Assembly: GCA_964630835.1 (NCBI GenBank)
Contig: CAZVZM010000001.1
Coordinates: 60,151-124,150, forward strand
DNA length: 64,000 nt
Reading direction: 5' to 3'
From: an uncultured Halanaerobiaceae bacterium
GTDB taxonomy: Bacteria; Bacillota; Halanaerobiia; Halanaerobiales; Halarsenatibacteraceae
Under the pieces are notes generated by a model. The model searched no databases. It was given only the letters and a program-made list of their open reading frames with translations, and was not told the origin of the DNA. Of the stretch, positions 14,752 to 35,281 are shown piece after piece. Both the position numbers and the translations under genes were made by a program. Position 1 is the stretch's first letter. Every line of letters starts with the position of its first letter.

Positions 14752-14834
14752 AAAATACCTCCAAAAAATGATCGCCTCTAATAGTTCTTAATGTCTGGGA
14801 GAGTTCAGCTGTATGGAAACAAAAAGAGTTTACA

Positions 14835-16082: not shown

Positions 16083-16123
16083 AAATTTAACCTCCTATTA
16101 TGAGAGAGTTTAAGTTTTTTAGT

Positions 16124-17086: not shown

Positions 17087-17146
17087 ATAATCTCCTCCTT
17101 AATAAAATTTAAAGTTAAAAAGTTCGGTTCTTTTCCAAAAATATTA

Positions 17147-17914: not shown

Positions 17915-17993
17915 TTTATTTACCCTCCTCCTGAACTGAGCGGTAAAAAATTTAGTTTTTTCAAAAATCAATTTTAATATAACTATCCATCTT

Positions 17994-18794
17994 TTAAGAA
18001 GAGGATGAAATATCTTTTACTACCTGGTTGGAAAGAGTTCCAATTCCCTTAATTGTGATCTCAATTTCATCTCCATGCCTGAGATAGCGAGGGGGCTTTT
18101 GACCTTTTCCTACCCCGGGGGGAGTCCCGGTAGTGATAAGTGTACCGGGAAGCAGTGTCATCTGTCTGGAACAATAACTGATTATTTCATCATAGCTAAA
18201 AATCATATCTTCAGCTTCAGAGTTCTGTTTTAATTTGCCATTTAGATAGGATTTTATTGCGGCTGATTCCGGGTCTGCAGATGTTTCAATAAAAGGACCA
18301 AAGGGACAGAATGAATCAAAGGATTTAGCTCTGGCCCACTGCCCATCATTTTCCTGACAGTCGCGGGCTGTAACATCATTAACACAGGTATAGCCCAGAA
18401 TGTAGTCATCAGCTTCGCAGGGAGAAATATCTTTTGCTTTTTTGCCCATGACTATACCAAGCTCAGCTTCGTAATCAACACTGTCGGAAGCCTGTGGGGG
18501 GAGTTTTATGTCATCTTCCGGTCCAATAATGCTGCTGGTTGCTTTGAGAAATATCAGCGGCTTATCAGGGACCTGTTTTCCGGACTCCCTGGCGTGCTCA
18601 TGATAATTAAGCCCTATGGCAATTACATTGGGAGGATTAACGGGGGGAAGGAGTTTGACATCAGAAATATCCCATTTCCTTTCTGTGCAGGAAAAAGCAG
18701 AAAATATACTGCCTTTAATTTCTGTTATTATATTTCCATCCATTCTCCCCGTGAGTGCATCGTTCTCGCCGGTCATAAATTGGGCCAATTTCAT
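17994..18794 (-). CDS. Fumarylacetoacetate hydrolase-family protein
   Basis: IGLNYHEH, DYEAELG, GYTCVNDVTARD, AKSFDSFCP and TGTPPGVG motifs. Confidence 0.85.
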   Translation of the reverse strand: MKLAQFMTGENDALTGRMDGNIITEIKGSIFSAFSCTERKWDISDVKLLPPVNPPNVIAIGLNYHEHARESGKQVPDKPLIFLKATSSIIGPEDDIKLPPQASDSVDYEAELGIVMGKKAKDISPCEADDYILGYTCVNDVTARDCQENDGQWARAKSFDSFCPFGPFIETSADPESAAIKSYLNGKLKQNSEAEDMIFSYDEIISYCSRQMTLLPGTLITTGTPPGVGKGQKPPRYLRHGDEIEITIKGIGTLSNQVVKDISSSS

Positions 18795-18884
18795 ATGATC
18801 ACCTCAAATTTATGATTCATAGTTCGATAAATTTTGAACTCAATCTTCAATTTTAATAAAATCTAAGGTTTTCCGATCACTCGC

Positions 18885-20108
18885 TCAATATGTTTGCCTG
18901 GAGAATTTTTCTCGAAGTTCCCTATCATCCCGGGCCTCTCCAGCGCAACCTTCTTCCATGGCAGTTCGAGCTACGGCCAGAGCGACTTCACCTGTTACCC
19001 CTCTGCGGAGGGGAGGAGGAATGATTTTATCCGGAGAAGGGCTTTTCACCAGCTCTGCCAGGTTGCGTGCAGCGGAAAGTTTCATCTCCTGATTTATTTC
19101 TGAAGACCTTACCGAGATTGCTCCCCGCATCACACCGGGGAAAGCGAGAACGTTATTAATTTGATTTGGGTGATCGGATCTCCCCGTAGCCACCACACTG
19201 GCTCCTGCTTTTTTTGCCACACTGGGATCAATCTCCGGCTCGGGATTGGCGAGGGCAAAAATAATAGGATCATCGGCCATTTTATCAATCATGGCCCGGT
19301 CCAAAACACCACCTACCGAAAGGCCGATAAATATATCGGCATTTTTGACTGCTTTATTCAGACTTCCGGCAATATTCTTCGGGTTGGTTTTTGCAGCAAG
19401 TTTTTCCTTGGCCTCGTTCATACCGTCCTCTCTGCAGGAATGAATTATTCCCCTGCTGTCACAGATGATCAGATTTTCTCTCTCAATTCCTTTCTGTATT
19501 AGGAGATTGGCCGTGGCAGTAGCTGAGGCTCCGGCCCCATTGATTACTATTTTGCACGCAGTCAAATCTTTAGAAGTAACCTTTGTAGCATTATAAAGGC
19601 CTGCCAGTATAACAATGGCGGTTCCATGCTGATCATCATGGAAAATAGCCATTTCTGTTTCTTTTTTCAGTCTTTTCTCAATATAAAAACAGTCAGGTGC
19701 CGCTATATCTTCCAGATTCACTCCTGAAAAAACCGGCGAGAGAAGTTTGACGGTTTCAACGATTCTATCGGGATCTTCTGTGTCCAGACAAATTGGAAAA
19801 GCATCAAGGCCGGCAAATTTTTTAAAAAGCACCGCTTTCCCTTCCATAACGGGCAGGGATGCTCCGGCGCCGATATTTCCCAGCCCCAGCACAGCGGTGC
19901 CGGAAGAAACCACAGCTATCATGTTTCCCCGGGATGTATAGTCAAAAATTTTTTTTGAATCATCGGCAATTTTTCTGCAGGGCTCAGCTACTCCAGGAGA
20001 ATAAGCCAGACTGAGATCCTCCTCGCTATCGATCTCCACTTTGCTTTCTACTGACAGTTTGCCTTTATTTCTGGCGTGCAGGGCGAGCGCCTTTTCATAT
20101 ATATTCAT
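18885..20108 (-). CDS. NAD(P)-dependent malic enzyme
   Basis: GTAVLGLGNIG, VMEGKAVLFK, LEDI..P.CF, HDDQHGTA and ALANPEPEI motifs. Confidence 0.9.
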   Translation of the reverse strand: MNIYEKALALHARNKGKLSVESKVEIDSEEDLSLAYSPGVAEPCRKIADDSKKIFDYTSRGNMIAVVSSGTAVLGLGNIGAGASLPVMEGKAVLFKKFAGLDAFPICLDTEDPDRIVETVKLLSPVFSGVNLEDIAAPDCFYIEKRLKKETEMAIFHDDQHGTAIVILAGLYNATKVTSKDLTACKIVINGAGASATATANLLIQKGIERENLIICDSRGIIHSCREDGMNEAKEKLAAKTNPKNIAGSLNKAVKNADIFIGLSVGGVLDRAMIDKMADDPIIFALANPEPEIDPSVAKKAGASVVATGRSDHPNQINNVLAFPGVMRGAISVRSSEINQEMKLSAARNLAELVKSPSPDKIIPPPLRRGVTGEVALAVARTAMEEGCAGEARDDRELREKFSRQTY

Positions 20109-20123
20109 ATTCTCACTCCAGAA

Positions 20124-20834
20124 TTAATTATATATTTTAAAATTATCATTTATGATTTCACAGCCCAGTCTTTGCAGTTTTTTGTCAATCCAATCACGTT
20201 TAAGATTTCCATTTCTAATCTTTTTCAGCATCTGTTTTTCCTGATCCTGTTTGGATCTGGCTTTTGAAATGACTTCCTCCAGGTTATCTTTCTTAACAGC
20301 CACCACTCCATCGGCATCTCCAATAATTATATCTCCAGGATATATAATCTGGCCGGCACATGATATGGGGACGTTAATTTCTCCGGGGCCATTTTTATAG
20401 GGGCCCTGAGGGATGCAGCCTCTGGCATAAACTGCAACTGCAGCTTGATTTTGAATGTAATCCTTATCTCTGATCAATCCATCTAAAATAAATCCCTTAA
20501 CCGCTTTCTTTTCTGCCAGCCTGCACATTATCTCACCGATTATAGCTCTGTTATTTTCACCTCTTGCATCGACTGCAATGATGTCATTTTTGTCCGACAT
20601 TTCCAGGGCCTTATGCACCATTAGATTATCTGTGGCTGTTGTTTTTACGGTGAGTGCTCTTCCAGATACCTTTAGTTTATTTGCTCTATTGATAGGCATG
20701 ACTTCAGAAGCGAGACAGCCTGATCTATTCATGACATCGGATATAACAGCTGCAGGATATTGTGCCAGCTCCTTGATTTTATCGATGTCCGCTTTTTTCG
20801 GCTTATCATATATTCGAAAACCTATTTCGGACAA
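20124..20834 (-). CDS. RraA-family protein / 4-hydroxy-4-methyl-2-oxoglutarate aldolase-like
   Basis: ISDVM, DNLMVH, AIIGEIM, DGLIRD and PGDIIIGDADGVV motifs. Probable TTG start at 20834 (ORF track gives 20858). Confidence 0.8.
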   Translation of the reverse strand: MSEIGFRIYDKPKKADIDKIKELAQYPAAVISDVMNRSGCLASEVMPINRANKLKVSGRALTVKTTATDNLMVHKALEMSDKNDIIAVDARGENNRAIIGEIMCRLAEKKAVKGFILDGLIRDKDYIQNQAAVAVYARGCIPQGPYKNGPGEINVPISCAGQIIYPGDIIIGDADGVVAVKKDNLEEVISKARSKQDQEKQMLKKIRNGNLKRDWIDKKLQRLGCEIINDNFKIYN

Positions 20835-20900
20835 AATGCATCCCTCCCCGGGCCACAACCTGTATTAAAAAGATTAATAGGCAATAAAGCTCAGATCTAT

Positions 20901-21770
20901 TTAAAGCATATTCTGGACAAGATCAGGTATATCCGTCAGATCTTCTGCGATTTTAATTCCGGCTTCAGCAAGGACTTTTTTCTTATGCCCGGCTCCTCCT
21001 TCTCCACCAGGAGATACTATTGCTCCAGCATGTCCCATTCTTTTACCCTCCGGGGCAGCTTCTCCGGCTATGAGTGCGATGGCTTTTTTATTCATATTTT
21101 TGTCGATGTATTCGGCTGCTTTTTCTTCATCTCTGCCCCCGATTTCTCCCAGCAGAACTATAACTTCAGTCTGATCATCTTTTTCATAAAGGGGGAGAAG
21201 ATCTATAAAACTGGAACCCTGTATGGGGTCTCCACCAATTCCTACGACTGTTGACTGGCCTATTTCCCTGTTGGAAAGATTATTGGAGGTTTCGTAAGAG
21301 AGAGTGGCGCTGCGTGACATTACTCCCACCTTTCCCTGTTTATAGATGCTGCCGGACATAAATCCAACCTTTGATTTACCAGGGGAGATAACCCCGGGGG
21401 TATTGGGACCAATTAGAACGCAGTCGTGATAGCGGGCGTAATTATAGCAGTAAAGCATGTCCTGAAAGGGAACACCTTCTGCAACGGCTACCACCAGGTC
21501 GAGACCAGCGCTGACGGCTTCAATGATAGCATCTTTAGTATAGCGGGGGGGTACAAATAAAATGCTGGAGTTGGCTCCCGTTTCCATTTGAGCTTCTCTA
21601 ACAGTGTCATAAACGGGGATGCCACTCACCTCTTTGCCGCCTTTGCCGGGTGTGACCCCAGCCACCACCCGGGTGCCATATTCCTTCATCAGACGGGCGT
21701 GAAATTTTCCCTCTCTGCCGGTAATGCCCTGAACGATAAGTTTTGTGTTTTCATTAATCAGTATGCTCAA
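20901..21770 (-). CDS. sucD: Succinyl-CoA synthetase (ADP-forming acyl-CoA ligase) alpha subunit
   Basis: VQGITGREG.FH, IGPNTPG, GIGGDP and phospho-His motif MGHAGA. Probable TTG start at 21770. Confidence 0.85.
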   Translation of the reverse strand: MSILINENTKLIVQGITGREGKFHARLMKEYGTRVVAGVTPGKGGKEVSGIPVYDTVREAQMETGANSSILFVPPRYTKDAIIEAVSAGLDLVVAVAEGVPFQDMLYCYNYARYHDCVLIGPNTPGVISPGKSKVGFMSGSIYKQGKVGVMSRSATLSYETSNNLSNREIGQSTVVGIGGDPIQGSSFIDLLPLYEKDDQTEVIVLLGEIGGRDEEKAAEYIDKNMNKKAIALIAGEAAPEGKRMGHAGAIVSPGGEGGAGHKKKVLAEAGIKIAEDLTDIPDLVQNML

Positions 21771-22911
21771 CGATTTCACCTGCCTTCTGCAATTTGGAGG
21801 CCTTTTTAACGACCTTATCCAGTTTTGTGGATGCTTCCAGACCGGCATCCTGCAGTATTTTTATTCCCTTTTCTCTGTTTGTTCCCTGGAGTCGACATAC
21901 AATATCCAGTTCATCCGGTATATCCTGCAATGATTTTTTGACCCCGTTTGCAATTTCATTGCAGCGGGTTATTCCACCAAATATATTGAAGAGCACTGTC
22001 TCTGCATCTTCATCCTGCTTGACAACATTTACGGCTTTATTTACCTCTTCGGCAGTTGCTCCGCCGCCCAGATCAAGAATATTGGCTACATCGGTTTCGT
22101 GACGGCTGAGAAGATCGAGCGTGGTCAGGGCCAGACCTGCTCCATTGCTTATTATGGATACGGAGCCGTTGAGTTTAATAACGACAAATCCCGCCTGCCT
22201 GCCGATGAGTTCAAGAGGCTCCTCTTTATCCTCATCAAGCATGTCAACTATCTGTTCCTGGCGGTAGCTGGCATTATCATCTGCCTGAAGCTTGGCATCG
22301 AGAGCTAAAAGGTTATTATCATCCAGAAGGGCCAGGGGATTGATCTCCACAAGCAAACAATCGTATTTTTTGTAGACTCCGTACAATTTTTTTGCTATTT
22401 CCTCCAATTGTTCAGCAGATTTGCCCTCAAGCTCCGCCATATTGTGAATTTCATTGAAATGATGTCTATGGAGCCCTGTGAGAGGATCAATAGTCAGCCT
22501 CAATATCTTTTCAGGCTGTTTTTCTGCCACCTCTTCAATATCCATGCCTCCCGAGGAGCTAAAAATTAGCGTGGTTTCTTTCTCTTCGCGATTTAAGGTT
22601 ATCCCCAGATAAAATTCTCTCTCAATCTTTTGTTTTTTTTCCAGAAGAACCTGAGAAATTTTTTCACCTTTAAGTTCGCTGCCAAGCAGATCTTCGGTTT
22701 TATCCCTTGCTTCTTTTGGTGAAGAAACGAATTTTATCCCGCCGGCCTTACCCCTGCCGCCGGCGTGTACCTGGGATTTAACGGCTAAATCTGTCCCCAG
22801 CTCTTCACCTATGTCGGCTGCTTTTTCCGGAGTATCTGCCACCTGTCCACTCGGTATGTCAATTCCCTCATTGGCCAGTATTTTCTTTGCCTGATATTCA
22901 TATATTTTCAT
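21754..22911 (-). CDS. sucC: Succinyl-CoA synthetase beta subunit
   Basis: YEYQAK, KSQVHAGGRGKAGG, NGAGLA, NILDLGGG and NIFGGITRC motifs. Confidence 0.85.
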   Translation of the reverse strand: MKIYEYQAKKILANEGIDIPSGQVADTPEKAADIGEELGTDLAVKSQVHAGGRGKAGGIKFVSSPKEARDKTEDLLGSELKGEKISQVLLEKKQKIEREFYLGITLNREEKETTLIFSSSGGMDIEEVAEKQPEKILRLTIDPLTGLHRHHFNEIHNMAELEGKSAEQLEEIAKKLYGVYKKYDCLLVEINPLALLDDNNLLALDAKLQADDNASYRQEQIVDMLDEDKEEPLELIGRQAGFVVIKLNGSVSIISNGAGLALTTLDLLSRHETDVANILDLGGGATAEEVNKAVNVVKQDEDAETVLFNIFGGITRCNEIANGVKKSLQDIPDELDIVCRLQGTNREKGIKILQDAGLEASTKLDKVVKKASKLQKAGEIVEHTD

Positions 22912-22943
22912 GTTTTATCCTGCACCTCTCAGTTGATTTTGAA

Positions 22944-23480
22944 TTAAATCAGACTTTTTCCCAGCTTGTATGCTTCATCGTTCATTTTTTCGGTGCCTTC
23001 AGGCACCATTTCAGAAATGGCCTCTTTCATTACATTATCTCCTGTAATGCCTATTACCTCATTCATCATGCCTATTGCTGCAATATTGGTAGGAAGTGTT
23101 GTGCCCAGCTCTTCTTCCACACTTATAGTGAGAGGAGCCTTATATATATCATTGGATATAATATCTTCGGGTATATTTTTTACTTTGAATGAATCAATGA
23201 TTACAGTAGAATCCTCTTTTAACTCCCCGTAGTAATTATCGCAGGCTTCCTGTGATAGAACTACGAATATGTCAGGGATGTGCACAGAGAGATCAAAAAT
23301 TTTGTCGGGGCTTATAACAACCTCTCCCCGGCAGGCTCCACCGCGAGCTTCTATACCATGTGATTCTCCCTGTACAACGTTGTAGCCGTCCTTCATACAG
23401 GCTTCAGCAATAATTATGCTGGCCAGAACCAGTCCCTGTCCACCTGTGCCGCTGAATCTTACCTCCAGTCTGTCATCCAT
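22944..23480 (-). CDS. 2-oxoacid:ferredoxin oxidoreductase gamma subunit (Kor-like)
   Basis: FSGTGGQGLVLA and EARGG motifs. Confidence 0.85.
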   Translation of the reverse strand: MDDRLEVRFSGTGGQGLVLASIIIAEACMKDGYNVVQGESHGIEARGGACRGEVVISPDKIFDLSVHIPDIFVVLSQEACDNYYGELKEDSTVIIDSFKVKNIPEDIISNDIYKAPLTISVEEELGTTLPTNIAAIGMMNEVIGITGDNVMKEAISEMVPEGTEKMNDEAYKLGKSLI

Positions 23481-24295
23481 TATTTGTCACCCTCTTTAAA
23501 GTTTGTTATTCTGTCATATTCGTCAATGAATTCCGGTCTATCCTCTTTGTATAATACTCCACGGGGCACTTTGTTTTTCTGGTCTTCAGGAGGGAGGTTT
23601 TCGGCCTGTTTTTTGCTAATAGTTATCTCCTTGAGTGTTTTCAGAAGTTCAGCAGCATCATTATAATTGTTTCGGCGGCCGTATTGAGTTGGGCAGGTTG
23701 TAAGAACTTCTACCACGGAAAAACCTTTATGATCTATTGCCTTTGAAAATAAATCGGGCAGCTCTTTGACATAATAAGCATCTCCGCGGCCGAAGAAGCT
23801 TGCTCCGGCTCCGATGACCAGCTCTTCTATATTTACATCCGGCTCCACCATGCCAAAGGGAGCCGTGGAGGCTTTATCGCCCTTCTGAGTGGTGGGTGCA
23901 TACTGTCCTCCCGTCATTCCGTATATTTGATTGTTGGCAATTATTGCTGTGAGATTAATATTGCGGCGTGCAGCATGCACCAGGTGATTGCCTCCTATTG
24001 CGGTTGCGTCACCATCTCCCATAAATACAATCACGTTGAGTTCCGGACGGGACATTTTAAGTCCTGTGGCATAACTTAATGCTCTACCATGGGGAGTGCG
24101 CAGGGAGGGAAAGTCCATATATGTGGGCAGTTTACCGGCACAGCCAATAGCGCAGACCATTGCAGTCTTGTTTTGATTAAGTCCCAGGTCATCTATTGCC
24201 CTGATAAGTGACTGCCAGGCTGTGCCATGTGTGCAACCCGGACAAATGAATGTGGGCATTATGTCTGTCCGCAAATATCTATCCAGCTTACTCAT
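23480..24295 (-). CDS. 2-oxoacid:ferredoxin oxidoreductase beta subunit (ThDP-binding)
   Basis: CPGCTHG, IGCAG, HGRAL and GDGD..IGGNHL..NNQIYGMTGGQ motifs. Confidence 0.88.
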   Translation of the reverse strand: MSKLDRYLRTDIMPTFICPGCTHGTAWQSLIRAIDDLGLNQNKTAMVCAIGCAGKLPTYMDFPSLRTPHGRALSYATGLKMSRPELNVIVFMGDGDATAIGGNHLVHAARRNINLTAIIANNQIYGMTGGQYAPTTQKGDKASTAPFGMVEPDVNIEELVIGAGASFFGRGDAYYVKELPDLFSKAIDHKGFSVVEVLTTCPTQYGRRNNYNDAAELLKTLKEITISKKQAENLPPEDQKNKVPRGVLYKEDRPEFIDEYDRITNFKEGDK

Positions 24296-24305
24296 GATTT
24301 CACCC

Positions 24306-25436
24306 CTAATTAATTTCCTTGATTTTTTTCAGCAGTTCCTGCATGGTTATATCTCGACTGGAAACCTTGTTATGCTGAATTACCTCCGCCCGACCTTCCA
24401 CTGCCTGTCTGGTCAGACCTGCAACCTGTCCTAAATTCATTTCAGATACGATTATCTTATCCACTCTTTTTGCTGTTTTTAATAATTCTTTTTCGGGAAA
24501 AGGCCAGATAGTGAGAGGTCTTATCAGCTCTACATTTATGCCCTCTTCCTGGGCCTTTTTTACAGCTCCCTGGGCGGGTCTGGTTGTTGATCCAAAGGCA
24601 AGCAGAGCAATGTCAGGATTCTGGCATGTTATTCTCTCCACCTCAACAATATCATCATAGTACTTATCCAGCTTTGAATTTATTCTTTTTACACACTCAT
24701 CGATGATATCCTCATCCAGATCAGGGATCCCGTTTTCACCATGGATCATTCCCGATATATTGTATCTGTATTCCCCGCCAAAGGGCGGCAATACTGGGAT
24801 TTCACTCTCATCTACTTCATATGGCAGATATTCTTCGGGTGGACCTCCATCTACCTTTCTATCAATGATCTCCAGAGACTCTTTGTCGGGCAGTGTCACG
24901 CTCTCTCTCATATGAGCAAGAGACTGATCACTCAATATTACCACTGGCACCATATATTTTTCTGCCAGATTAAAGGCTCTGATGGTTTCTGTGTAAGACT
25001 CTTTAACCGTCCCGGGCATGACAGCTATTCGGGGGCTATCTCCGTGAGAACCCCAGCGAGCCTGTAAAATATCTGCCTGGTGAGTTTTGGTGGCACCACC
25101 GGTGCTGGGACCCACGCGCTGGGCGCTGTAGATCACAATTGGAAGCTCGACCATGGCTGCATATCCCAGATTTTCCTGCTTGAGACTCATACCCGGACCA
25201 CTGGTTATAGTTATAGCCTTGCTTCCACCCGCGGAAGCTCCGATTACGGCCCCGATGCTTCCTAATTCATCTTCCATTTGAATGAAGCGTCCACCCCGTG
25301 AGGGTAATTTTTCTGCCAGCACCTCCATAGCTCCGGAGGAAGGGGTTATGGGATAACCGGCGCAAAATTTCACCCCTGCTGTCAGAGCTCCTTCAGCAAC
25401 TGCTTGATTTCCCTGCATTAAAACTGTTTTACTCAT
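24306..25436 (-). CDS. 2-oxoacid:ferredoxin oxidoreductase alpha subunit
   Basis: GNQAVAEG, YPITPSS, QMEDELGS, TSGPG and QRVGPSTG motifs. ATG 25436 follows AGAGGTG. Confidence 0.88.
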   Translation of the reverse strand: MSKTVLMQGNQAVAEGALTAGVKFCAGYPITPSSGAMEVLAEKLPSRGGRFIQMEDELGSIGAVIGASAGGSKAITITSGPGMSLKQENLGYAAMVELPIVIYSAQRVGPSTGGATKTHQADILQARWGSHGDSPRIAVMPGTVKESYTETIRAFNLAEKYMVPVVILSDQSLAHMRESVTLPDKESLEIIDRKVDGGPPEEYLPYEVDESEIPVLPPFGGEYRYNISGMIHGENGIPDLDEDIIDECVKRINSKLDKYYDDIVEVERITCQNPDIALLAFGSTTRPAQGAVKKAQEEGINVELIRPLTIWPFPEKELLKTAKRVDKIIVSEMNLGQVAGLTRQAVEGRAEVIQHNKVSSRDITMQELLKKIKEIN

Positions 25437-25629
25437 GATTTTCACCTCTTATTTCTATGGCTAAATCCGGGCACCTTAATTCACATAGCGAGCACTCCGT
25501 GCATTTTTCCTCATCTGCGATCCTGGGTCTGCCTTTCTTATCCAACTCCAGAACGTCTGTGGGACAAAATTCAACACAAATAGCACATTTCTTGCACCAT
25601 CTTCTATCAATTGTAATCCGGGCTGTCAT
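25429..25629 (-). CDS. 2x[4Fe-4S] ferredoxin, delta subunit of the oxidoreductase
   Basis: CKKCAICVEFCP and CTECSLCELRCP. Confidence 0.85.
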   Translation of the reverse strand: MTARITIDRRWCKKCAICVEFCPTDVLELDKKGRPRIADEEKCTECSLCELRCPDLAIEIRGENHE

Positions 25630-25744: not shown

Positions 25745-26443
25745 TTAATCTGTTTCCGGCTGAAAACTGTCATCCCATCGTTCGATAATTAATTCTCTGG
25801 ACTTCTCAATATGTTCCTCCATAATTCTGCCGGCTTTTTCCTGATTGCCGTTGACAATAGCATTGACAATCATTCTGTGCTCCTCAACAGCTTCATGATG
25901 GCGAGAAGTATAAATAGCCAGGAGAGAGGCGAGAAAAGTGGTGAGATGGGAAATGCCATCGTATATATCTTTAAGCTGGCTGTTATGGCTTGCTTTGATG
26001 ATTGTCTCATGCAGCTCTTTGTGAGTTATTTTATACTGATCCAGATCTTCTTCCGGGCTGTTCTCAAGCAAATTTTCAATTTTATTTTGTAGCCCCTGTA
26101 ATTTATTTTTGTTTTCTCTATCAATTCTTTTTGCAGCCAGCCGACAGCCAAAGCTCTCCAGTGCAATTCTGGTTTCGTAAATATCTCCAACCTCCTTTTC
26201 CGAGAATTCTCTGATTTTATAACCCCGGTAGGGAATTTTTTCTATAATCCCCTGATTTTCCAGCATGTTGAGAGCTTCTCTGATGGGAGTATTGCTCACT
26301 CCAAGCTCATCAGAAATTTCATTGATTGGGAGAGATTCCCCAGGAGACATCTGTCCGGTGACTATTGTTTCAAGAAGTATGTCAAAGACCGCTTCTCCCA
26401 GTTGATTTTTGCCAGGAAAGGAAAAATTCATATCATCAACCAT
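25745..26443 (-). CDS. GntR-family (FadR/FCD) transcriptional regulator
   Basis: wHTH LGVSNTPIREAL followed by an FCD-like domain (HETII..SHN, EH..IV.AI). Confidence 0.85.
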   Translation of the reverse strand: MVDDMNFSFPGKNQLGEAVFDILLETIVTGQMSPGESLPINEISDELGVSNTPIREALNMLENQGIIEKIPYRGYKIREFSEKEVGDIYETRIALESFGCRLAAKRIDRENKNKLQGLQNKIENLLENSPEEDLDQYKITHKELHETIIKASHNSQLKDIYDGISHLTTFLASLLAIYTSRHHEAVEEHRMIVNAIVNGNQEKAGRIMEEHIEKSRELIIERWDDSFQPETD

Positions 26444-26734: not shown

Positions 26735-26803
26735 AATGTCAAATGTATTTGTCAAAAAGTTTAAAACAATACATTTGACATTAAACATTCGGTGTGATAT
26801 AAA
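26735..26803. promoter_or_regulatory. Perfect 15-bp inverted repeat containing two opposed TTGACA boxes, plus a rightward extended -10 promoter
   Basis: AATGTCAAATGTATT (26735-26749) and AATACATTTGACATT (26768-26782). TTGACA at 26775-26780, 17-nt spacer, TATAAA at 26798-26803 preceded by TGn. Confidence 0.6.
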
Positions 26804-26934
26804 GTTTACTGAAGCGGTCATTTGTCCCCAACATATTCATTTCTATATTTTGGAAGGAAGCATTTGTTTTTATATTTTGCCGCTTTTTGAGAAGAATCTC
26901 ACAACAATAAATTTTAAGTTAAAGGAGTGATTAA

Positions 26935-27651
26935 ATGAAAATTGATCAGGAAAAATGCGTGGCCTGTGAAAATTGCCTTCCCTACTGTCCTGCTGAAGCA
27001 ATAAAAGCTGGAGAGGACAGGGTAAAAGTTGATGAGGAGTTGTGTTTTGAATGTGGCGTATGCAGCAGAGTGGAGGCCTGTCCCACCGATGCTTTTTATG
27101 AGCCGGATTACGTTTTTGAACATCCCCGATCTGTAAGAAAGGCTTTCAGTGATCCTTCAGTGGATCATTCGGAAACGAACATGCCCGGGCGAGGCACTGA
27201 AGAAGTAAAAACCAATGATGTGACCAATAGAGTCGAAAAAGGTTATGTAGGAATAGGCCTGGAAATGGGAAGACCTTCAGTGGGAACCACCGTAAAAGAG
27301 GTGGAAAAGGCTACAAAAGCTCTTGCGGAAAATGGTTTCAGCAACTTTGAAGAGTGCAATCCAGTTTTTGCTTTAATGAAAAATCCTGAGACCGGTGAGA
27401 TGAAGGAAGATGTGCTGGAAGAAAGACTTTTATCTGCTATAATAGAGCTCGATATTCCCGAAGATGAACTGGAAAAGTGTTTCAAGGTAGTTAAGGAGAT
27501 TGCAGATAAGATTGATACAGTTTTCACCATGGATTTAATATCCTGTTATGATGAAGATATGAAGCTAAGAGTTGAAGAAATGCTTGATGAATCCAGCTTT
27601 GAAGCCAGACCAAATGCCAAAATAAACATTGGAGTGGGAAAAGCAGAATAA
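26935..27651 (+). CDS. Uncharacterised protein with N-terminal 2x[4Fe-4S] domain
   Basis: CVACENCLPYCP and CFECGVCSRVEACP, then GRGTEEVKTNDVT..EMGRP in a C-terminal domain I cannot assign. AGGAG RBS. Confidence 0.75.
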   Translation: MKIDQEKCVACENCLPYCPAEAIKAGEDRVKVDEELCFECGVCSRVEACPTDAFYEPDYVFEHPRSVRKAFSDPSVDHSETNMPGRGTEEVKTNDVTNRVEKGYVGIGLEMGRPSVGTTVKEVEKATKALAENGFSNFEECNPVFALMKNPETGEMKEDVLEERLLSAIIELDIPEDELEKCFKVVKEIADKIDTVFTMDLISCYDEDMKLRVEEMLDESSFEARPNAKINIGVGKAE

Positions 27652-27666
27652 TAAGGAGGTAAAATA

Positions 27667-28305
27667 ATGACGCATACATTGCACCGCGAGGGTTCTGAGG
27701 ACAGTCTTAAAAACGACTATCTGCTGCTTATCACCCCTGCAATAGGCTATAACGATGAGGGAGCAGCGGAAAAGATAAAAGATCTTATCGATATAGTATT
27801 TGAGGTGGGACCGATAAACTACGGGTGTTATGAGCTGGGGCAGAATATTCTCAGCGATAAAATTAATGTGGATGTAATTAAAAATGAAACCAGAGATAAC
27901 TCCCGCATCAGGTGCGTTTTTTCCAGCAAGGAAAAGTTCAAAGAGGTTATTGAGAGAGTTATCGAAGAGGACACGGGCCTTTCCGTAACTCTCAGTGCAC
28001 TCAGATCAGATATTGGAGAAATTTTGGACGAGATGGACATTGATCCCCATTCGGCAAATCTCAGTCTGGGAATTCATGGCAACATGGATGAGCTTCCGGA
28101 TGGCAATTACCGAAAAATTACGACAATGTGCGGACATGCCATGATTTCTCCGGGACTGGTTGAGGATATGATACAAAAAATAAATGAGGATAAGATTTCT
28201 TATGAAGAGGCGGCTGTCAAACTGGCCGAACCCTGTCTCTGCGGAATTTTTAATCAGGAGAGAGCCGAGGAGCTGTTGCGCGAGCTAACTCCACTGTATG
28301 CTTAG
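27667..28305 (+). CDS. Hypothetical protein with C-terminal Cys/His motifs
   Basis: AAGGAGG RBS; begins MTHTLHR, ends with TMCGH and PCLCGIFN; 15 nt from the upstream gene. Confidence 0.7.
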   Translation: MTHTLHREGSEDSLKNDYLLLITPAIGYNDEGAAEKIKDLIDIVFEVGPINYGCYELGQNILSDKINVDVIKNETRDNSRIRCVFSSKEKFKEVIERVIEEDTGLSVTLSALRSDIGEILDEMDIDPHSANLSLGIHGNMDELPDGNYRKITTMCGHAMISPGLVEDMIQKINEDKISYEEAAVKLAEPCLCGIFNQERAEELLRELTPLYA

Positions 28306-28306
28306 A

Positions 28307-28432
28307 TTTTTGATATCTTCTCCGTAATTACTGGTGAAATTTACGAGATATGCCTGTAAAACGATAGTTGCTCACTTCCTATTATAGGAAGCTATGAGTC
28401 GAAGTGATACTCGAAGTTTTTCAAAGCCCGAG
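28307..28432. repeat. Dispersed composite repeat, copy B
   Basis: 28307-28380 is the reverse complement of the 35775-35842 module. A CTTCC-TATTATA-GGAAG junction follows, then GGAAGCTATGAGTCGAAGTGATACTCGAAGTTTTTC, matching 53811 onward. Confidence 0.75.
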
Positions 28433-28614
28433 CTAAAATTTTATAAAAAAATGCACATATATTATATACAAACTGCAGAGAGGAGGGGTTAAAAAGCTGA
28501 TATAAAGGATTAAATCAATGGCTGGAAATTGTTTTTAAAAACACCTGTTTTGCAGTAAAATTGGCATTGAAAGTGTATTTTGTGATTATCATTTAATTTC
28601 AGGGGGGTTTATTA

Positions 28615-29586
28615 ATGAAAAAAAGTTCAGTTCTATTTACTGTGGTAGCTCTAGTAATGGCTATTTCGCTAATTTCTGCACCTGCAATGGGAGCGGATGA
28701 ATTTCCGGAACAGGAAATTAATATCATTGTTCCCTTTGCTCCCGGAGGCGGTACAGATGTTTATGTAAGAAATATATCTTCACACCTTGAAGAGGAACTG
28801 GGCGTTCCTGTTGTTGTAGAAAACATTGAAGGAGCCGCTTCTCTGCGCGGAATAGGTCTTGCTCATGGAGCGGAACCTGATGGATATACTTTAATTGCTT
28901 TTAATCCACCATCTCCACATATGGCTATTGCCACACAGGGAGCCCACTTTACCGTAGATGAATTTGAATTAATCGGAGGTTATGCTATGGAGGGGCCGCT
29001 GCTTTCCGTACACCCCGATCAGCCCTATGAAACTTTTGAAGAGGTACAGGAAGCATATCGCGAGGGTGAAATTGAACTTCATGCTACCCAGTCTGAAGGA
29101 ACAATATTGCATATATCCACCGTTCTGGCCATGGAGTTTGCAGAGCTGGAAATAGATGAGTATATCCCCTATCCCGGTTCTGGAGAGATTATAGCTGCTA
29201 TGATAAGAGAAGAGGCTCCAACAGGAATTTCTACAGCCGGAGCAGCTATAGATCATATTGCTGATGGTTCATTGAGACCCATTGTTTTCATGGGACATGA
29301 GAGATATCCAGGACTTCCGGATGTTCCTTCAATCGCTGAACTGGGTTACGAAGAAGCTGCTTTGCCGCAGTTTAGACTTCTGGCGGCTCCCGAGGGGACA
29401 CCTGAAGAAATAGTGGACACACTGGAAAATGCTCTTCTCAGCGCTTTAGAGCAGGATGAACTGCTGGAATGGGCTGAGGAAGCCGATAGACCGGTTGAGC
29501 CTCTGACCGGCGAACAGGTTACTCAAATGAATGAGGATCTGGGAGAAACCATGGAATTTCTGCAGGAAGAGGGTATACTGGATTAA
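28615..29586 (+). CDS. tctC: Tripartite tricarboxylate transporter substrate-binding protein (TctC/Bug)
   Basis: Signal peptide, then FPEQEINIIVPFAPGGGTD, VVENIEGA, A.PDGYT and LPDVPSIAELG. Confidence 0.85.
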   Translation: MKKSSVLFTVVALVMAISLISAPAMGADEFPEQEINIIVPFAPGGGTDVYVRNISSHLEEELGVPVVVENIEGAASLRGIGLAHGAEPDGYTLIAFNPPSPHMAIATQGAHFTVDEFELIGGYAMEGPLLSVHPDQPYETFEEVQEAYREGEIELHATQSEGTILHISTVLAMEFAELEIDEYIPYPGSGEIIAAMIREEAPTGISTAGAAIDHIADGSLRPIVFMGHERYPGLPDVPSIAELGYEEAALPQFRLLAAPEGTPEEIVDTLENALLSALEQDELLEWAEEADRPVEPLTGEQVTQMNEDLGETMEFLQEEGILD

Positions 29587-29712: not shown

Positions 29713-30207
29713 TTGAAGGCCCTAAAAAATATTCTTATTAGATTTGACAGCCTCCTGGAAGTGCTGCTTCTTATTATAATTTTAGGTGTATCAATTTTTT
29801 TTCACCTGGAAGCATATTCTTTTTCAGACGATTCAAGAATTTATCCTCTGGTCACTTCCGGACTGGCCATAATTTTAACAGTTATTTATGTAACTATGAA
29901 GCTTTATAAAAACAGAGATAAAAAAGCCTCGGAAGAAGATTTTAAAAATTTAATTAACCCCACTTTCAAAAGGGTGCTATTTTCTGCTGTTTCTTTTGTT
30001 ATATACCTTCTGGCTGTATATTATTTCGGTTTTTTCTTGGCTTCAATCGCTTATATGATTTCCTATCCTCTGGCACTCGGTTTTAGAAAAATTCCGACCA
30101 TCATTATAGGTGTTATAACCGTAGCAGTCATAATTCTGGCATTTGAGTATGTGCTGGGTGCCGGTTTGGTTTCGGGAGAGCTTATTGAGCTGGATTTCTT
30201 ATTTTAA
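29713..30207 (+). CDS. tctB: TctB small permease
   Basis: 164 aa, about four hydrophobic segments, YYFGF motif, located between tctC and tctA. Confidence 0.75.
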   Translation: MKALKNILIRFDSLLEVLLLIIILGVSIFFHLEAYSFSDDSRIYPLVTSGLAIILTVIYVTMKLYKNRDKKASEEDFKNLINPTFKRVLFSAVSFVIYLLAVYYFGFFLASIAYMISYPLALGFRKIPTIIIGVITVAVIILAFEYVLGAGLVSGELIELDFLF

Positions 30208-30280: not shown

Positions 30281-31768
30281 ATGTTAGGCATTTTAGGTGA
30301 GGCGATGTTATTTATAGTTCAACCCTATACACTGCTGCTGGTTTTAGCAGGAGTTATAGTGGGAGTGATAGTGGGTGCCATTCCCGGAGTGGGTCCTCCG
30401 GTTGCAATAGCGCTTTTGATTCCAATAAGCTATCCGCTCGGGCCCAATTATGCATTGGTGCTGCTTGTCAGTGTTTACAGCGGGGGAATGTTTGGTGGGG
30501 CTATAGCCTCAATACTGATAAATGCCCCGGGCACGGGAGCTTCGGCTGCGACCACAATTGACGGATATCCTATGGCCCGGAAAGGGCAGGCTCAAACAGC
30601 CCTCTCAATTGCTGCTTTTTCATCCGCTCTGGGAGGGATTTTTTCCGGGATCGTTCTTCTCTTTGGCATACCCTATCTGAGAGAGTTTGTATTGATGTTT
30701 GGAACTCCTGAATTCTTTTTGCTCGGCATACTTGGTATTGTTTTGATTGCCGTTGTAAGTAAAAAGTCAATGTTAAAGGGTTTGATCGGAGGTTGCTTTG
30801 GCCTTATGATGACAACAATAGGCATCGCTCCCATGGATGCCCAGATAAGATATACTTTTGATCTCTTTGCACTATACGATGGCATAGGATTTTTGCCGGC
30901 AATAATTGGTCTCTTTGCCATTGCAGAGATGCTGAAACTGGCAGGGGAGGATGCTTTAGGAATTTCAAAAGATTTAACTCTTTCAGGAAGCACGCTGGAA
31001 GGGATTAAGGTTGTTCTAAGAAACAAGCTCCTTTCTCTCAGGTCCGCTATATTTGGATTGTTGATCGGTACTGTCCCAGGAGCAGGAGGAACTACTGCAT
31101 CATTTATCGTATATTCACAGCTGAGTTCTTCTGCAGATGAATCGGAAGGGTATGGTGAGGGTAATCCTAAAGGCCTTGTAGCCACTGAGTCTTCAAACAA
31201 TGCTGTTATTGGGGGAGCTCTGGTTCCCACTCTGCTTTTTGGTATTCCCGGGAGCTCCACCACTGCCGTGCTTTTAGGTGGTATGCTCATACACGGGCTG
31301 AGGCCCGGTCTGGAGTTGTTTGAAGGAGAAGGTCTATTTACAGTTTATATAATTGCCCTGGCTCTTGTGCTCGGTCATCTGATGAAATTTATTCTGGGGA
31401 TTTCAGGATCAGGGCTTTTCAGCAAGGCTACGACTCTGAGAAAAGAAATTCTCATTCCAGCAGTGATGATTCTTTCTTCAATCGGTATCTATATTATTGA
31501 TCTGAACCATTTTGATCTGGTTCTGATTACAGTTTTCGGATTTATAGGCTACCTGATGGTTAAAAATAACTATCCGGTGATACCAATTATACTGGCTGTG
31601 ATACTGGGTGGAATGATAGAAGCTGATCTTTACAGGAGTTTAAGAATTGGAAGAGGTTCTTTGTTGTTTCTCCTGGAGAGGCCAATTTCGATTGTACTGA
31701 TTGTATGTATGATTATAATTCTTTCCAGCCCCATTTTGAAAAAACTGTATAAGCGGGTCTCAAATTAA
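30281..31768 (+). CDS. tctA: TctA large permease
   Basis: GAIPGVGP, INAPGT.ASAATTIDGYPMA..G, ESSNNA and LLFGIPGS motifs. Confidence 0.9.
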   Translation: MLGILGEAMLFIVQPYTLLLVLAGVIVGVIVGAIPGVGPPVAIALLIPISYPLGPNYALVLLVSVYSGGMFGGAIASILINAPGTGASAATTIDGYPMARKGQAQTALSIAAFSSALGGIFSGIVLLFGIPYLREFVLMFGTPEFFLLGILGIVLIAVVSKKSMLKGLIGGCFGLMMTTIGIAPMDAQIRYTFDLFALYDGIGFLPAIIGLFAIAEMLKLAGEDALGISKDLTLSGSTLEGIKVVLRNKLLSLRSAIFGLLIGTVPGAGGTTASFIVYSQLSSSADESEGYGEGNPKGLVATESSNNAVIGGALVPTLLFGIPGSSTTAVLLGGMLIHGLRPGLELFEGEGLFTVYIIALALVLGHLMKFILGISGSGLFSKATTLRKEILIPAVMILSSIGIYIIDLNHFDLVLITVFGFIGYLMVKNNYPVIPIILAVILGGMIEADLYRSLRIGRGSLLFLLERPISIVLIVCMIIILSSPILKKLYKRVSN

Positions 31769-31816: not shown

Positions 31817-32896
31817 GTGGGAGATAATTTGACTGAAAATCAAAATAGAGTTTATCCTGAGCGCCTGGAATTTTTCACTCGCAAGCTGCTTCAGGCAGCT
31901 GGTCTTTGTAAAAACCATGCCGAAATTGTGACTTCATCTCTTATTGATGCAAATGTCAGCGGTAAAGATAGTCATGGTGTAACCAGGCTGCCAACTTATT
32001 TGAAAAGGCTGGAGAGAGGGTTGATTAATAGGCGGCCTCGAATAAGTTTTAAAAAGAAATCGGATGGGACCGGCATTGTTGATGGTGACAATGGCATGGG
32101 ACATATTGCTGCCATGAAAGCAGCAGAAAAGTCGGCAGAAATTGCGGAAGAAACTGGAGCTGCTTTTATTGGAGTTAAAAACAGCAACCACTTTGGAACA
32201 GCGGGTTATTATGCAAAACATATTCTTTCTAATAATAAAATAGGATTTGTTTTTTCCAGTGCTGCCCCCACCATGGTTCCTCACGGAGGAGCAACACCTG
32301 TTTTGGGAACCAATCCCCTGGCAGCAGGTATTCCCACCAGAGGAGAATTTCCAATTGTTATAGATATGGCTACAAGTGTGGTGGCCCGGGGCAATATTTT
32401 GCTTGCCGATAAAGAAGGAAAGAAGATTCCTGAGGGCTGGGCTGTTGATACTGAGGGTAGGCCTACAACTGATGCCGGGAAGGCTCTGGAAGGAGCTGTT
32501 CTCCCATTTGCAGGGCCTAAAGGATATTCGCTGGCTTTACTGGTTGATGTGCTTTCAGGTGTATTGACCGGGGCTTCCTGGGGTAAACATATAAATTCTC
32601 AAAATACCGACTTTGAAAATCCTCAGGATCTTGGGCATTTTATGGGGGCAATTGATATTGAAACCTTCATGACTCTTGATGTATTCAGGGAGAGAATACA
32701 GGAGTTTGTAAGAGAAATTAAGGATATCCCCCCTGCTCCGGATCAGGAGGAAGTTATGTTGCCGGGGGAAATAGAAGCCCGGACCGAAAGAAAAAGGCGC
32801 AGGGAAGGAATACCCATACCACTTTCTGTTGCGGGAGAGTTAAAAGATCTGGGTGACAAATATGATCTGGACAGGAATCTGCTTGAAGTTTTTTGA
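31817..32896 (+). CDS. Ldh_2-family (malate/L-lactate/sulfolactate-type) oxidoreductase
   Basis: DSHGVTRL, DGDNGMGH, NSNHFG, GTNPLA..DMATS and KGYSLAL motifs. Confidence 0.85.
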   Translation: MGDNLTENQNRVYPERLEFFTRKLLQAAGLCKNHAEIVTSSLIDANVSGKDSHGVTRLPTYLKRLERGLINRRPRISFKKKSDGTGIVDGDNGMGHIAAMKAAEKSAEIAEETGAAFIGVKNSNHFGTAGYYAKHILSNNKIGFVFSSAAPTMVPHGGATPVLGTNPLAAGIPTRGEFPIVIDMATSVVARGNILLADKEGKKIPEGWAVDTEGRPTTDAGKALEGAVLPFAGPKGYSLALLVDVLSGVLTGASWGKHINSQNTDFENPQDLGHFMGAIDIETFMTLDVFRERIQEFVREIKDIPPAPDQEEVMLPGEIEARTERKRRREGIPIPLSVAGELKDLGDKYDLDRNLLEVF

Positions 32897-34408: not shown

Positions 34409-35281
34409 ATGCTGCGCTCTATTTTATTTATGCCCGGAAACAATGAAAAAATATTAAGCAGGGTGGAGAAGTTAAATGCGGATGCAGTAATTCTTGATCT
34501 GGAAGATGGAGTGCCGCCTGCAGAAAAGGAAAAAGCGCGGGAGCTGGTATACAGGCGCCTGCAAAGTCTGAAGGTAGCGGATCTTAAAAAAAGAATATAT
34601 GTCAGGGTGAACGGCCCGGGTATGGGGTGTATGCGTGAGGACCTGAGAGCAGTTCTGTCTCCTGTGCTTGATGGTCTTATGCTTCCTATGGTTAACTCAA
34701 CGCAAGAGATACATAAATTAACCACTCTGCTCACTGTATTAAGCACCGGCAAAAAAGATATAAAGCTAAATGAGCTCAGCCTTCTGCTCAATGTGGAAAC
34801 GGCCAGGGGAATTCTCAATCTCTCTGAGCTTATGTCAGCTACAGATCTGGTGAGCGGTGCAGCTCTGGGGGGAGAAGATCTTTCTTTGGATATGAGGGCC
34901 AAACGAACTTCAGGTGGCAATGAGATTGCTTATGCCCGTTCTCACCTGGTGATGGCTTCCAGGGCAGCAGACAAACTTGCTATTGATACGGTTTTTACCG
35001 ATATTGAAGATACAGAAGGCTTAAGAAAAGAGGCCAGGGAGGCTGCCCGGATGGGTTATGATGGCAAATTGCTGATCCATCCGTCTCAAATAGAACCTGT
35101 TAACGAAATATTTATGCCGGCTCCGGAGGAGATAAATTTTGCCCGCAGGGTTGTTGAAGCCTTTGAGCGGGGAGAAGAGGAGGGGCGGGGAGCTGTCAAA
35201 GTTGACGGCAAAATGGTGGATCCTCCGGTGGCCGCTCGCGCCAGGCGCATTTTGGAGATGGCTGATGATAGAATTTTTTGA
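34409..35281 (+). CDS. CitE/HpcH-HpaI-family CoA-ester lyase (citryl-/malyl-/citramalyl-CoA lyase-like)
   Basis: RSILFMPG, DAVILDLEDGV, VRVN, GGEDL and GKLLIHPSQI motifs. Confidence 0.85.
   Translation: MLRSILFMPGNNEKILSRVEKLNADAVILDLEDGVPPAEKEKARELVYRRLQSLKVADLKKRIYVRVNGPGMGCMREDLRAVLSPVLDGLMLPMVNSTQEIHKLTTLLTVLSTGKKDIKLNELSLLLNVETARGILNLSELMSATDLVSGAALGGEDLSLDMRAKRTSGGNEIAYARSHLVMASRAADKLAIDTVFTDIEDTEGLRKEAREAARMGYDGKLLIHPSQIEPVNEIFMPAPEEINFARRVVEAFERGEEEGRGAVKVDGKMVDPPVAARARRILEMADDRIF

Follow-up and report, generated by a model that had tools for sequence, protein, structure and literature searches.

A conserved gene pair with ferredoxin-type and Cys–His motifs beside carboxylate transporters of anaerobes: a candidate iron–sulfur oxidoreductase

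Several groups of iron–sulfur (Fe–S) proteins have been described that share single elements with the locus considered here. Delta subunits of the PorD_KorD type are small stand-alone proteins of approximately 70–100 amino acids (aa). The CCG domain of LutA, GlcF, and HdrB follows the pattern CX31-39CCX35-36CXXC, and the elements of the CDGSH (mitoNEET) domain come in the order C-X-C-X2-(S/T)-X3-P-X-C-D-G-(S/A/T)-H. The window analyzed here, i.e., the whole stretch of 64,000 nucleotides (nt) from an uncultured Halanaerobiaceae bacterium (contig CAZVZM010000001.1, positions 60,151–124,150 of the forward strand), contains two adjacent genes, hereafter gene 1 and gene 2, followed by the genes of a TctABC carboxylate transporter (Table 1). 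An earlier sequence-only reading had described two open reading frames (ORFs) with Cys-rich motifs, strong ribosome-binding sites, a gap of 15 nt, and a strong rightward promoter, and all of these were confirmed. The pair is a genuine, conserved, completely uncharacterized two-protein Fe–S module. Our preferred reading, to which we give slightly less than an even chance, is that the two products form a heterodimeric Fe–S oxidoreductase of a never-characterized family, acting on the imported acid.

Residues 1–56 of the gene 1 product form a clostridial-type 2x[4Fe-4S] ferredoxin domain (Pfam Fer4, E-value 3.6e-10, 39.7 bits against a cut-off of 21.1) with the motifs C8-x2-C11-x2-C14-x3-C18-P and C37-x2-C40-x2-C43-x5-C49-P, the latter having a five-residue spacer between C43 and C49. 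This places gene 1 within the bacterial 2x[4Fe-4S] ferredoxin domains (Pfam Fer4/Fer4_7/Fer4_21); in Foldseek comparisons, the domain matches clostridial ferredoxins with TM-scores on target of 0.85–0.89. The remaining approximately 180 residues (about 60–238) form an alpha/beta domain that matches neither a family nor a fold but has many invariant polar residues; it contains GRGTEEVKTNDVT at residues 85–97 and EMGRP at 110–114. Among 199 gene 1 homologues, the eight ferredoxin Cys are retained in 98–99%; R86, K92, N94, R113, P114, P143, I169, and E171 are retained in 100%; and G85, G87, T88, E90, K229, and N231 in at least 97%. No other conserved Cys is seen in these homologues. The alignment-based AlphaFold2 model has a mean predicted local confidence (pLDDT) of 87.1, with the loop 80–100 being less confident. 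The conservation pattern suggests that gene 1 would hold two electron-transfer clusters and a polar, largely cationic pocket suited to carboxylates.

Gene 2 starts with MTHTLHR and has MCGH at residues 154–157 and PCLCG at 189–193. Among 130 representatives (26–47% identity to the window protein), C155, G156, H157, C190, C192, and N196 are retained in 100%, R7 in 98%, H6 in 95%, and H128 in 94%; that is, the conserved set comprises ligands of the 3Cys+1His type and a basic N-terminus, and its pattern suggests a putative third metal center. Hence, the motifs pointed out earlier are not due to chance, being invariant or nearly so in both families. In the AlphaFold2 model of gene 2 (pLDDT 92.6, predicted TM-score 0.88), an N-terminal beta-alpha-beta sandwich precedes a C-terminal part made of helices. 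Both proteins are predicted to be soluble and cytoplasmic, since neither has a hydrophobic segment; both are acidic. One homologue, P0287 (411 aa), is a natural fusion of gene 2 (residues 2–206) with a CooF-type Fer4_11 polyferredoxin (approximately 257–347), and this fusion ties gene 2 physically to an electron-transfer chain; P0325 resembles a frameshifted form of the same fusion. We also considered paralogy of the gene 2 N-domain and the gene 1 C-domain; the hhalign probability was 21% for small alignments and 3% for the alignments of 130 and 199 sequences, so the idea was rejected, and with it the likeness of PHxxNLSLG to PNAKINLGLG in these domains.

In our neighborhood sample (81 fetched loci from many phyla, 41 of them full-length), 103 of the 110 gene 2 copies are immediately preceded by a same-strand gene 1; the pairing is old and obligatory, and co-occurrence is far from rare. 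Pairs, gaps, and neighbors were counted by tblastn, since ORF calling in GC-rich loci was crude. The seven copies with no scored gene 1 are explained by contig edges, by sub-threshold alignment length, or, in the only archaeal locus (L057, Bathyarchaeota), by a masked run of N at the gene 1 site (9699–9992), the readable end of which, TNVGLGYK, fits the gene 1 C-terminus. The distance between the gene 1 stop and the gene 2 start does not exceed 30 nt in 96 of the 103 pairs; in 23 pairs the two genes overlap by 1 or 4 nt, a signature, judging by gene layout, of translational coupling. The window pair shows the full set of module features: gene 1 immediately upstream, CGH...CxC...N in gene 2, and GRGTE-x-KTND, GRP, and S-x-I-x-E in gene 1. 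The earlier proposal of a heterodimeric metalloenzyme is strongly supported by synteny as to the heterodimer and supported by the eight ferredoxin Cys and the invariant 3Cys+1His set as to the metals; the complex and its catalysis stay at the level of prediction.

The earlier statement that neither gene could be assigned to a known enzyme also held: searches of Pfam, NCBIfam, and sequences of the Protein Data Bank (PDB), and Foldseek searches with confident AlphaFold models, recognize the ferredoxin domain only, and no characterized enzyme is matched. Gene 2 has no match in Pfam or NCBIfam. For gene 1, both databases detect the ferredoxin domain alone, and the specific NCBIfam models score far below their cut-offs. 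In phmmer searches against all PDB chains, gene 1 retrieves ferredoxin domains only and gene 2 retrieves nothing, even at E ≤ 10; a profile of 34 gene 2 sequences has no match in PDB either. Foldseek comparison of both models with 350,542 PDB chains yields no match at E ≤ 0.001. Short of this threshold, the N-terminal half of gene 2 weakly matches PII-like SbtB proteins (best E-value 0.04, TM-score on query 0.25, root-mean-square deviation about 8 Å), and the gene 1 C-domain has weak, non-significant ACT/PII/ZipA-like matches (E-values 0.02–0.1, TM-score on query about 0.25), generic alpha/beta sandwiches in both cases. No account of the pair turned up in full-text searches of the literature.

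Several specific candidate families were rejected. As a PorD_KorD delta subunit (TIGR02179), gene 1 scores 36.5 bits against the cut-off of 60.05, and with 238 aa it has an extra conserved domain. Homologues bear public names such as "hypothetical protein," "4Fe-4S binding protein," "DUF362 domain-containing protein," and "PreA subunit"; DUF362 (PF04015) does not match gene 1 at E ≤ 0.01 and is absent from the precomputed Pfam lists of 120 homologues. Gene 2 has no Pfam match to the CCG domain (PF02754) and only three conserved Cys, spaced C-x34-C-x-C. Its C-G-H precedes C-x-C by 33 residues, and there is no Pfam match to zf-CDGSH. For Fe–S hydro-lyases (SDH_alpha/beta, Fumerase, Aconitase), no Pfam, NCBIfam, PDB sequence, or fold match was found for either protein.

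The family is large. A word-indexed search retrieves 374 gene 2 homologues; the exhaustive profile search gives at least 847 representatives of 50%-identity clusters at E ≤ 0.001, 230 of them at E ≤ 1e-30, nearly all being stand-alone proteins of 200–230 aa. When one genome per species was scanned, at least 394 relatives were found; bacterial carriers belong to Bacillota, Thermodesulfobacteriota, Synergistota, Chloroflexota, Acidobacteriota, Planctomycetota, and metagenome-assembled genomes (MAGs) of Pseudomonadota; archaeal carriers belong to Bathyarchaeota and Methanobacteriota. The carriers are anaerobic fermenters, syntrophs, and sulfate reducers of subsurface, sediment, digester, and gut. 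Within the order of the window organism, the pair is present in 9 of 72 genomes (one of which, G037, has three copies); the other five genomes from the same genus all lack it. Since this distribution is patchy and the gene 2 tree mixes phyla, the pair appears to behave as a horizontally mobile accessory module.

For the survey of co-occurring genes, ORFs of all loci were clustered and the clusters annotated with Pfam; what surrounds the pair is nearly always a set of carboxylate transporters, hydroxy-acid enzymes, and electron-transfer modules. The commonest neighbors are TctA and TctC of the tripartite tricarboxylate-type (TTT) transporters (40–41 of the 81 loci, 23 of the 41 full-length ones), and in several Firmicute loci the pair is situated between tctC and tctB. 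Loci lacking TTT genes have another carboxylate carrier near the pair, mostly directly adjacent: tripartite ATP-independent periplasmic (TRAP) transporters in L015, L061, L070, and L075; major facilitator superfamily (MFS) transporters in L017 and L060; a 2-hydroxycarboxylate transporter (2HCT) in L081; and a DASS/CitMHS carrier two genes downstream in L031. A GntR/FCD regulator recurs by the pair in 22 of the 81 loci.

Electron-transfer genes constitute the next class of neighbors. A CooF-like polyferredoxin, a protein of 420–490 aa, and a pyridine-nucleotide-disulfide-type flavoprotein, hereafter the trio, are found by the pair in 22–29 of the 81 loci. The 420–490-aa protein matches carbon monoxide dehydrogenase (CODH) with its N-terminal approximately 90 residues only (the B/D-cluster region) and resembles the mini-CooS (Techtmann et al., 2012; PMC3328121). 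The nearest counterpart of the flavoprotein (FAD/NAD(P) oxidoreductase) is PadH, which serves phenylglyoxylate dehydrogenase as its NADH/FAD subunit; the polyferredoxin is similar to PadI/HydN. L071 and L072 have the pair inside the trio, with the mini-CooS-like gene on one side and the flavoprotein gene on the other. Other loci have a full pyruvate:ferredoxin oxidoreductase directly upstream (L038), a gamma subunit of such an enzyme downstream (L081), or NuoE and a NuoF-GltD fusion (L050). The CooF-like/mini-CooS-like/PadH-like operon (L005/L089, 6319–9431; L086–L090) is an uncharacterized redox complex in its own right.

Enzyme neighbors vary from locus to locus. Dehydrogenases of the 3-hydroxyisobutyrate dehydrogenase (HIBDH) type occur in 20 of the 81 loci and of the Ldh_2 family in 13; others are DHDPS-type and PdxA-type enzymes, D-2-hydroxyacid dehydrogenases, IlvD-type dehydratases, GlcD/CCG and LarA-like proteins, hydroxypyruvate-isomerase-like TIM barrels, thiamine pyrophosphate (TPP) enzymes, family III CoA-transferases, AllG/FdrA-like proteins, and class-V aminotransferases. 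Single loci hint at C2–C6 hydroxy-, oxo-, or polycarboxylic acids as candidate substrates, and no specific pathway recurs. Tartrate, glyoxylate/oxalate/oxamate, threonate/erythronate, hydroxyproline, citrate, 2-hydroxyglutarate, and sulfolactate were considered and none proved recurrent enough; these candidates came from single neighbors (Gcl/Oxc-like TPP enzymes, Frc-like CoA-transferases, AllG/FdrA, PdxA, Hyi-like TIM barrels, TauE), and one Ldh_2 neighbor is closest to sulfolactate/malate dehydrogenases. In an Anaerolineaceae MAG (L059, 7689–12109), the pair is placed between a gene for an FdrA-like CoA-ligase-domain protein and a gene for AllG, a subunit of oxamate carbamoyltransferase, followed by an M42/M20 peptidase-family gene; this layout links the pair to the anaerobic allantoin/oxamate branch. 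Zinc uptake genes (ZnuA/Zur) as a clue to the metal were seen in two Synergistales loci only and treated as a coincidence.

The maximum-likelihood tree of 120 gene 2 copies reveals subfamilies related to genomic context. Context labels require 37 changes on the tree compared with 67 in shuffles, and none of the 200 shuffles was as low. The pair is often duplicated inside one locus: second copies of gene 2 in tandem arrays form a separate clade with 100/100 support, located by HIBDH genes, and in Firmicute loci with two pairs the HIBDH-side and Ldh_2-side copies belong to different clades. Such paralogues, tracking particular dehydrogenases, would be expected of enzymes with distinct specificities and less so of a generic accessory factor. 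The window gene 2 falls in a well-supported clade of 26 members, 21 of which directly follow the trio; 86 of the 120 tree copies (about 70%) have no trio within reach. In five of six close relatives from the order, the pair follows the trio, which runs CooF-like, mini-CooS-like, flavoprotein; the full operon comprises D-2-hydroxyacid dehydrogenase, the trio, the pair, TctCBA, an M29-like protein or a SagB-type nitroreductase, HIBDH, and GntR. The nearest relative (L085, 75% identity) has the pair, TctCBA, Ldh_2, and the nitroreductase, and is trio-free like the window. The window genome has no mini-CooS-like gene, just an ordinary CODH of 673 aa elsewhere.

From these observations we propose the following scheme for the preferred reading, that of an Fe–S oxidoreductase. 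The N-terminal 2x[4Fe-4S] domain of gene 1 would exchange electrons with a low-potential ferredoxin, which in the window organism is probably served by the divergently encoded KorABDG, as a source or sink of the pair's electrons; in many relatives, electrons may come from NAD(P)H via the PadH-like flavoprotein and the CooF-like polyferredoxin. They would proceed to the third metal center, held by C155, H157, C190, and C192 of gene 2 and adjoining a polar, largely cationic pocket built from R86, K92, N94, R113, and E171 of gene 1 together with H6 and R7 of gene 2. The compound undergoing reduction there, or oxidation in the reverse direction, would be a small hydroxy-, oxo-, or polycarboxylic acid delivered by TctABC or the first metabolite formed from it. 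Complex formation, the nature of the third center, the electron path, and the class of substrate are the parts of this scheme that we infer. A carboxylic acid is suggested because the neighbors comprise five carboxylate transporter families and hydroxy/oxo-acid enzymes; the constant adjacency to these transporters likewise makes the previously suggested early step on the imported acid plausible. We favor the reductive direction, as a fermenter with a ferredoxin-dependent reductase facing a 2-oxoacid:ferredoxin oxidoreductase would have a simple means of balancing its redox state internally.

Several observations weigh against this reading. The 3Cys+1His set could equally hold structural Zn, and the pair has no recognizable flavin- or nucleotide-binding motif. 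It is constant while its enzyme neighbors vary, which also fits a generic accessory role. Oxidation of 2-hydroxy acids with ferredoxin as the acceptor is thermodynamically unfavorable. Finally, most members of the window's own clade are joined to the trio, which is missing here; therefore, the window pair could be a remnant of a larger complex.

Three other explanations were weighed. The earlier reading had left the choice between redox enzyme and dehydratase or isomerase open, and a non-redox Fe–S hydro-lyase or isomerase in the style of aconitase, serine dehydratase, or tartrate dehydratase seems unlikely to us, though it is the strongest of the three. Here, a [4Fe-4S] cluster would be ligated by the three Cys of gene 2 and bind the hydroxyl or carboxylate of the acid through its open iron, the Arg/Lys pocket of gene 1 would hold carboxylates, and the ferredoxin domain would merely keep the catalytic cluster reduced or repair it. 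Exactly three invariant Cys with a His as a possible base in gene 2, the many invariant Arg, Lys, Glu, and Asn in gene 1, and a two-gene architecture in a hydroxy-acid context like that of TtdAB and SdaAB all agree with such chemistry, as do the RraA-like, FAH, and malic enzyme proteins of the window, which take oxaloacetate or malate and could use a dehydration product. However, neither sequence nor fold resembles any Fe–S hydro-lyase, and a conserved 2x[4Fe-4S] domain, a polyferredoxin fusion, and operons with an NAD(P)H-linked flavoprotein would make unusually elaborate equipment if the enzyme were non-redox. The evidence leans toward a redox function because of the gene 2–CooF fusion and the adjacent electron-input modules.

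The same trio suggests that the pair might be an electron-transfer or assembly subunit of a mini-CooS-like/CooF-like/flavoprotein complex, orphaned in the window or re-used there with another partner. The trio-joined majority of the window's clade, the shared gene order in close relatives, and the two loci where the pair interrupts the trio speak for it; yet the trio-free copies dominate the tree, the window pair is intact in a genome with no mini-CooS-like gene, retaining all invariant residues and strong expression signals, and the invariant polar residues of gene 1 have the look of a ligand-binding site more than of an electron conduit. We regard this explanation as rather improbable. Still less probable, in our estimate, is a redox- and ligand-sensing accessory that would gate carboxylate uptake by the redox state of ferredoxin, compare SbtB–SbtA and GlnK–AmtB. 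It would account for the constant adjacency to five unrelated transporter families amid varying enzymes, for pairs lying between tctC and tctB, and for the best Foldseek matches being PII-like (gene 2) and ACT/PII-like (gene 1 C-domain). These matches, however, are non-significant (E ≥ 0.04, TM-score on query about 0.25) and concern a very common fold; a single transporter is often accompanied by two differentiated pairs; neither a TTT nor a TRAP gene occurs within 10 kb in 17 of the 41 full-length loci, though several of these loci have a transporter of another family beside the pair; and membership in flavoprotein/CooF-like operons, as well as the polyferredoxin fusion, points to catalysis. 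An enzymatic role is favored because the duplicated copies form clades tracking the neighboring dehydrogenase.

The layout of the locus is given in Table 1. The TAA of gene 1 ends at 27651 and the ATG of gene 2 is at 27667; both ribosome-binding sites are strong Shine–Dalgarno sequences. The near-consensus promoter, approximately 130 nt upstream of gene 1, consists of TTGACA (26775–26780), a 17-nt spacer, and an extended −10 box TGn-TATAAA (26795–26803); the consensus promoter scanner omits it because it demands T as the final −10 base, which is A here. Each arm of the inverted repeat (26735–26749 and 26768–26782, with 18 nt between) holds TTGACA, and the right arm covers the −35 box. This repeat is a probable operator through which the divergent GntR/FCD regulator would control transcription in both directions. 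The pair is possibly co-transcribed with tctCBA. The unusually long spacer between gene 2 and tctC contains an imperfect 16-bp hairpin (28372–28407) followed by GAAGTTTTTC; no Rfam match and no consensus terminator on the plus strand were found in it, and it could be a processing site, an attenuation site, or an internal promoter region. PDB relatives of the window TctC gave no clue to the ligand.

Table 1. Coordinates of the gene pair, its control elements, and surrounding features in the window
Feature	Position	Strand	Basis and details
Divergent arm	12015-25629	-	carboxylate-catabolic gene set
M29-peptidase-like protein	16124-17086	-	short, 320 aa; no NCBIfam match
SagB-type nitroreductase-family protein	17147-17971	-	TIGR03605, 108 bits
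korG/korB/korA/korD, 2-oxoacid:ferredoxin oxidoreductase	22944-25629	-	divergent to the pair
GntR/FCD-family regulator	25745-26443	-	Pfam; divergent
Perfect 15-bp inverted repeat, AATGTCAAATGTATT / AATACATTTGACATT	26735-26782	.	repeat search
Sigma-70-type promoter of the pair	26775-26803	+	direct reading of the sequence
Ribosome-binding site of gene 1, AAAGGAG	26921-26927	+	7 nt upstream of ATG
Gene 1	26935-27651	+	ORF; 238 aa, 26.6 kDa, pI 4.5, predicted soluble
Ribosome-binding site of gene 2, AAGGAGG	27653-27659	+	7 nt upstream of ATG
Gene 2	27667-28305	+	ORF; 212 aa, 23.8 kDa, pI 4.5, predicted soluble
Spacer between gene 2 and tctC	28306-28614	+	309 nt; repeat, terminator, and Rfam searches
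tctC	28615-29586	+	Pfam; TTT carboxylate uptake system
tctB	29713-30207	+	Pfam; same TTT system
tctA	30281-31768	+	Pfam; same TTT system
Ldh_2-family 2-hydroxyacid/imino-acid dehydrogenase	31817-32896	+	Pfam, NCBIfam
CitE-like lyase	34409-35281		

The divergent arm is a coherent set of carboxylate-catabolic genes, with four Kor subunits, SucCD (exceeding the cut-off for succinate–CoA ligase), an RraA-like aldolase/oxaloacetate decarboxylase, malic enzyme, an FAH-family protein, a LarA-like racemase, a DAO/BFD flavoprotein, and a Pyr_redox_2 protein. Combined with the CitE-like lyase, the set resembles a pathway leading from a C5–C6 acid to pyruvate or succinate and ATP. Homologues of the M29-like protein are found by the pair and TctABC in 9 of the 81 loci, and also in the relatives L086–L089; homologues of the SagB-type nitroreductase directly follow tctA or Ldh_2 in L085 and L086, occupying the slot taken elsewhere by the M29-like gene.

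Many islands of carboxylate catabolism have the pair at their entry point, and roughly one locus in four connects it to a mini-CooS-like branch of the CODH/hybrid-cluster family. It is a tentative possibility, somewhat short of even, that the pair constitutes the catalytic core of an unrecognized, widespread family of ferredoxin- or NAD(P)H-linked metalloenzymes, with two new domains and a 3Cys–1His center, that performs a missing step in the anaerobic breakdown of small carboxylic acids and, in many lineages, is a partner of the mini-CooS-like relatives of CODH. Knowing the reaction would close a gap that recurs whenever the metabolism of anaerobes is reconstructed, and the pair could reveal a new Fe–S or other metal active site and provide a handle on the function of mini-CooS-like proteins. 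The question is approachable experimentally, as the proteins are small and soluble, and the binding protein of the transporter offers a direct route to the substrate.

Comparison with known systems shows partial likeness in each case. PII-like regulators (SbtB, GlnK) are also small alpha/beta sandwiches encoded by a transporter gene, but the structural likeness is non-significant, no T-loop or nucleotide-binding motifs were identified in the pair, and the pair has Fe–S cofactors. CDGSH/mitoNEET [2Fe-2S] proteins use the same 3Cys–1His ligand set as gene 2, with C-x-C and C-(x)-G-(x)-H elements, a likeness of ligand chemistry only; the order of the elements is reversed, and the spacing and the predicted fold differ. 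TtdAB, SdaAA/AB, and class I fumarase resemble the pair in being encoded by two adjacent genes, in the hydroxy-acid context, in the oxygen sensitivity of the organisms, and in a three-Cys site that possibly has an open iron; unlike the pair, these enzymes, which show no homology to it, have neither a ferredoxin domain nor electron-input partners. The ferredoxin domain of gene 1 scores best against PorD/KorD delta subunits and clostridial ferredoxins, and the operons of relatives follow the logic of the NADH-linked phenylglyoxylate dehydrogenase PadEFGHI, i.e., from NAD(P)H to FAD, an Fe–S chain, and a catalytic subunit; the differences are the sub-threshold PorD_KorD score, the extra domain of gene 1, and the absence of a TPP-binding subunit in the pair. 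LutABC/LldEFG, together with CCG proteins of the GlcF/HdrB type, have no sequence or fold kinship with the pair; gene 2 has neither a CCG motif nor a CCG domain, gene 1 has no LUD/DUF162 domain, and the pair has two subunits only; still, they are likewise small soluble multi-gene Fe–S oxidoreductases of hydroxy-acid catabolic operons, in which one subunit has a 2x[4Fe-4S] domain fused to another domain and its partner has a Cys-rich, non-canonical metal site.

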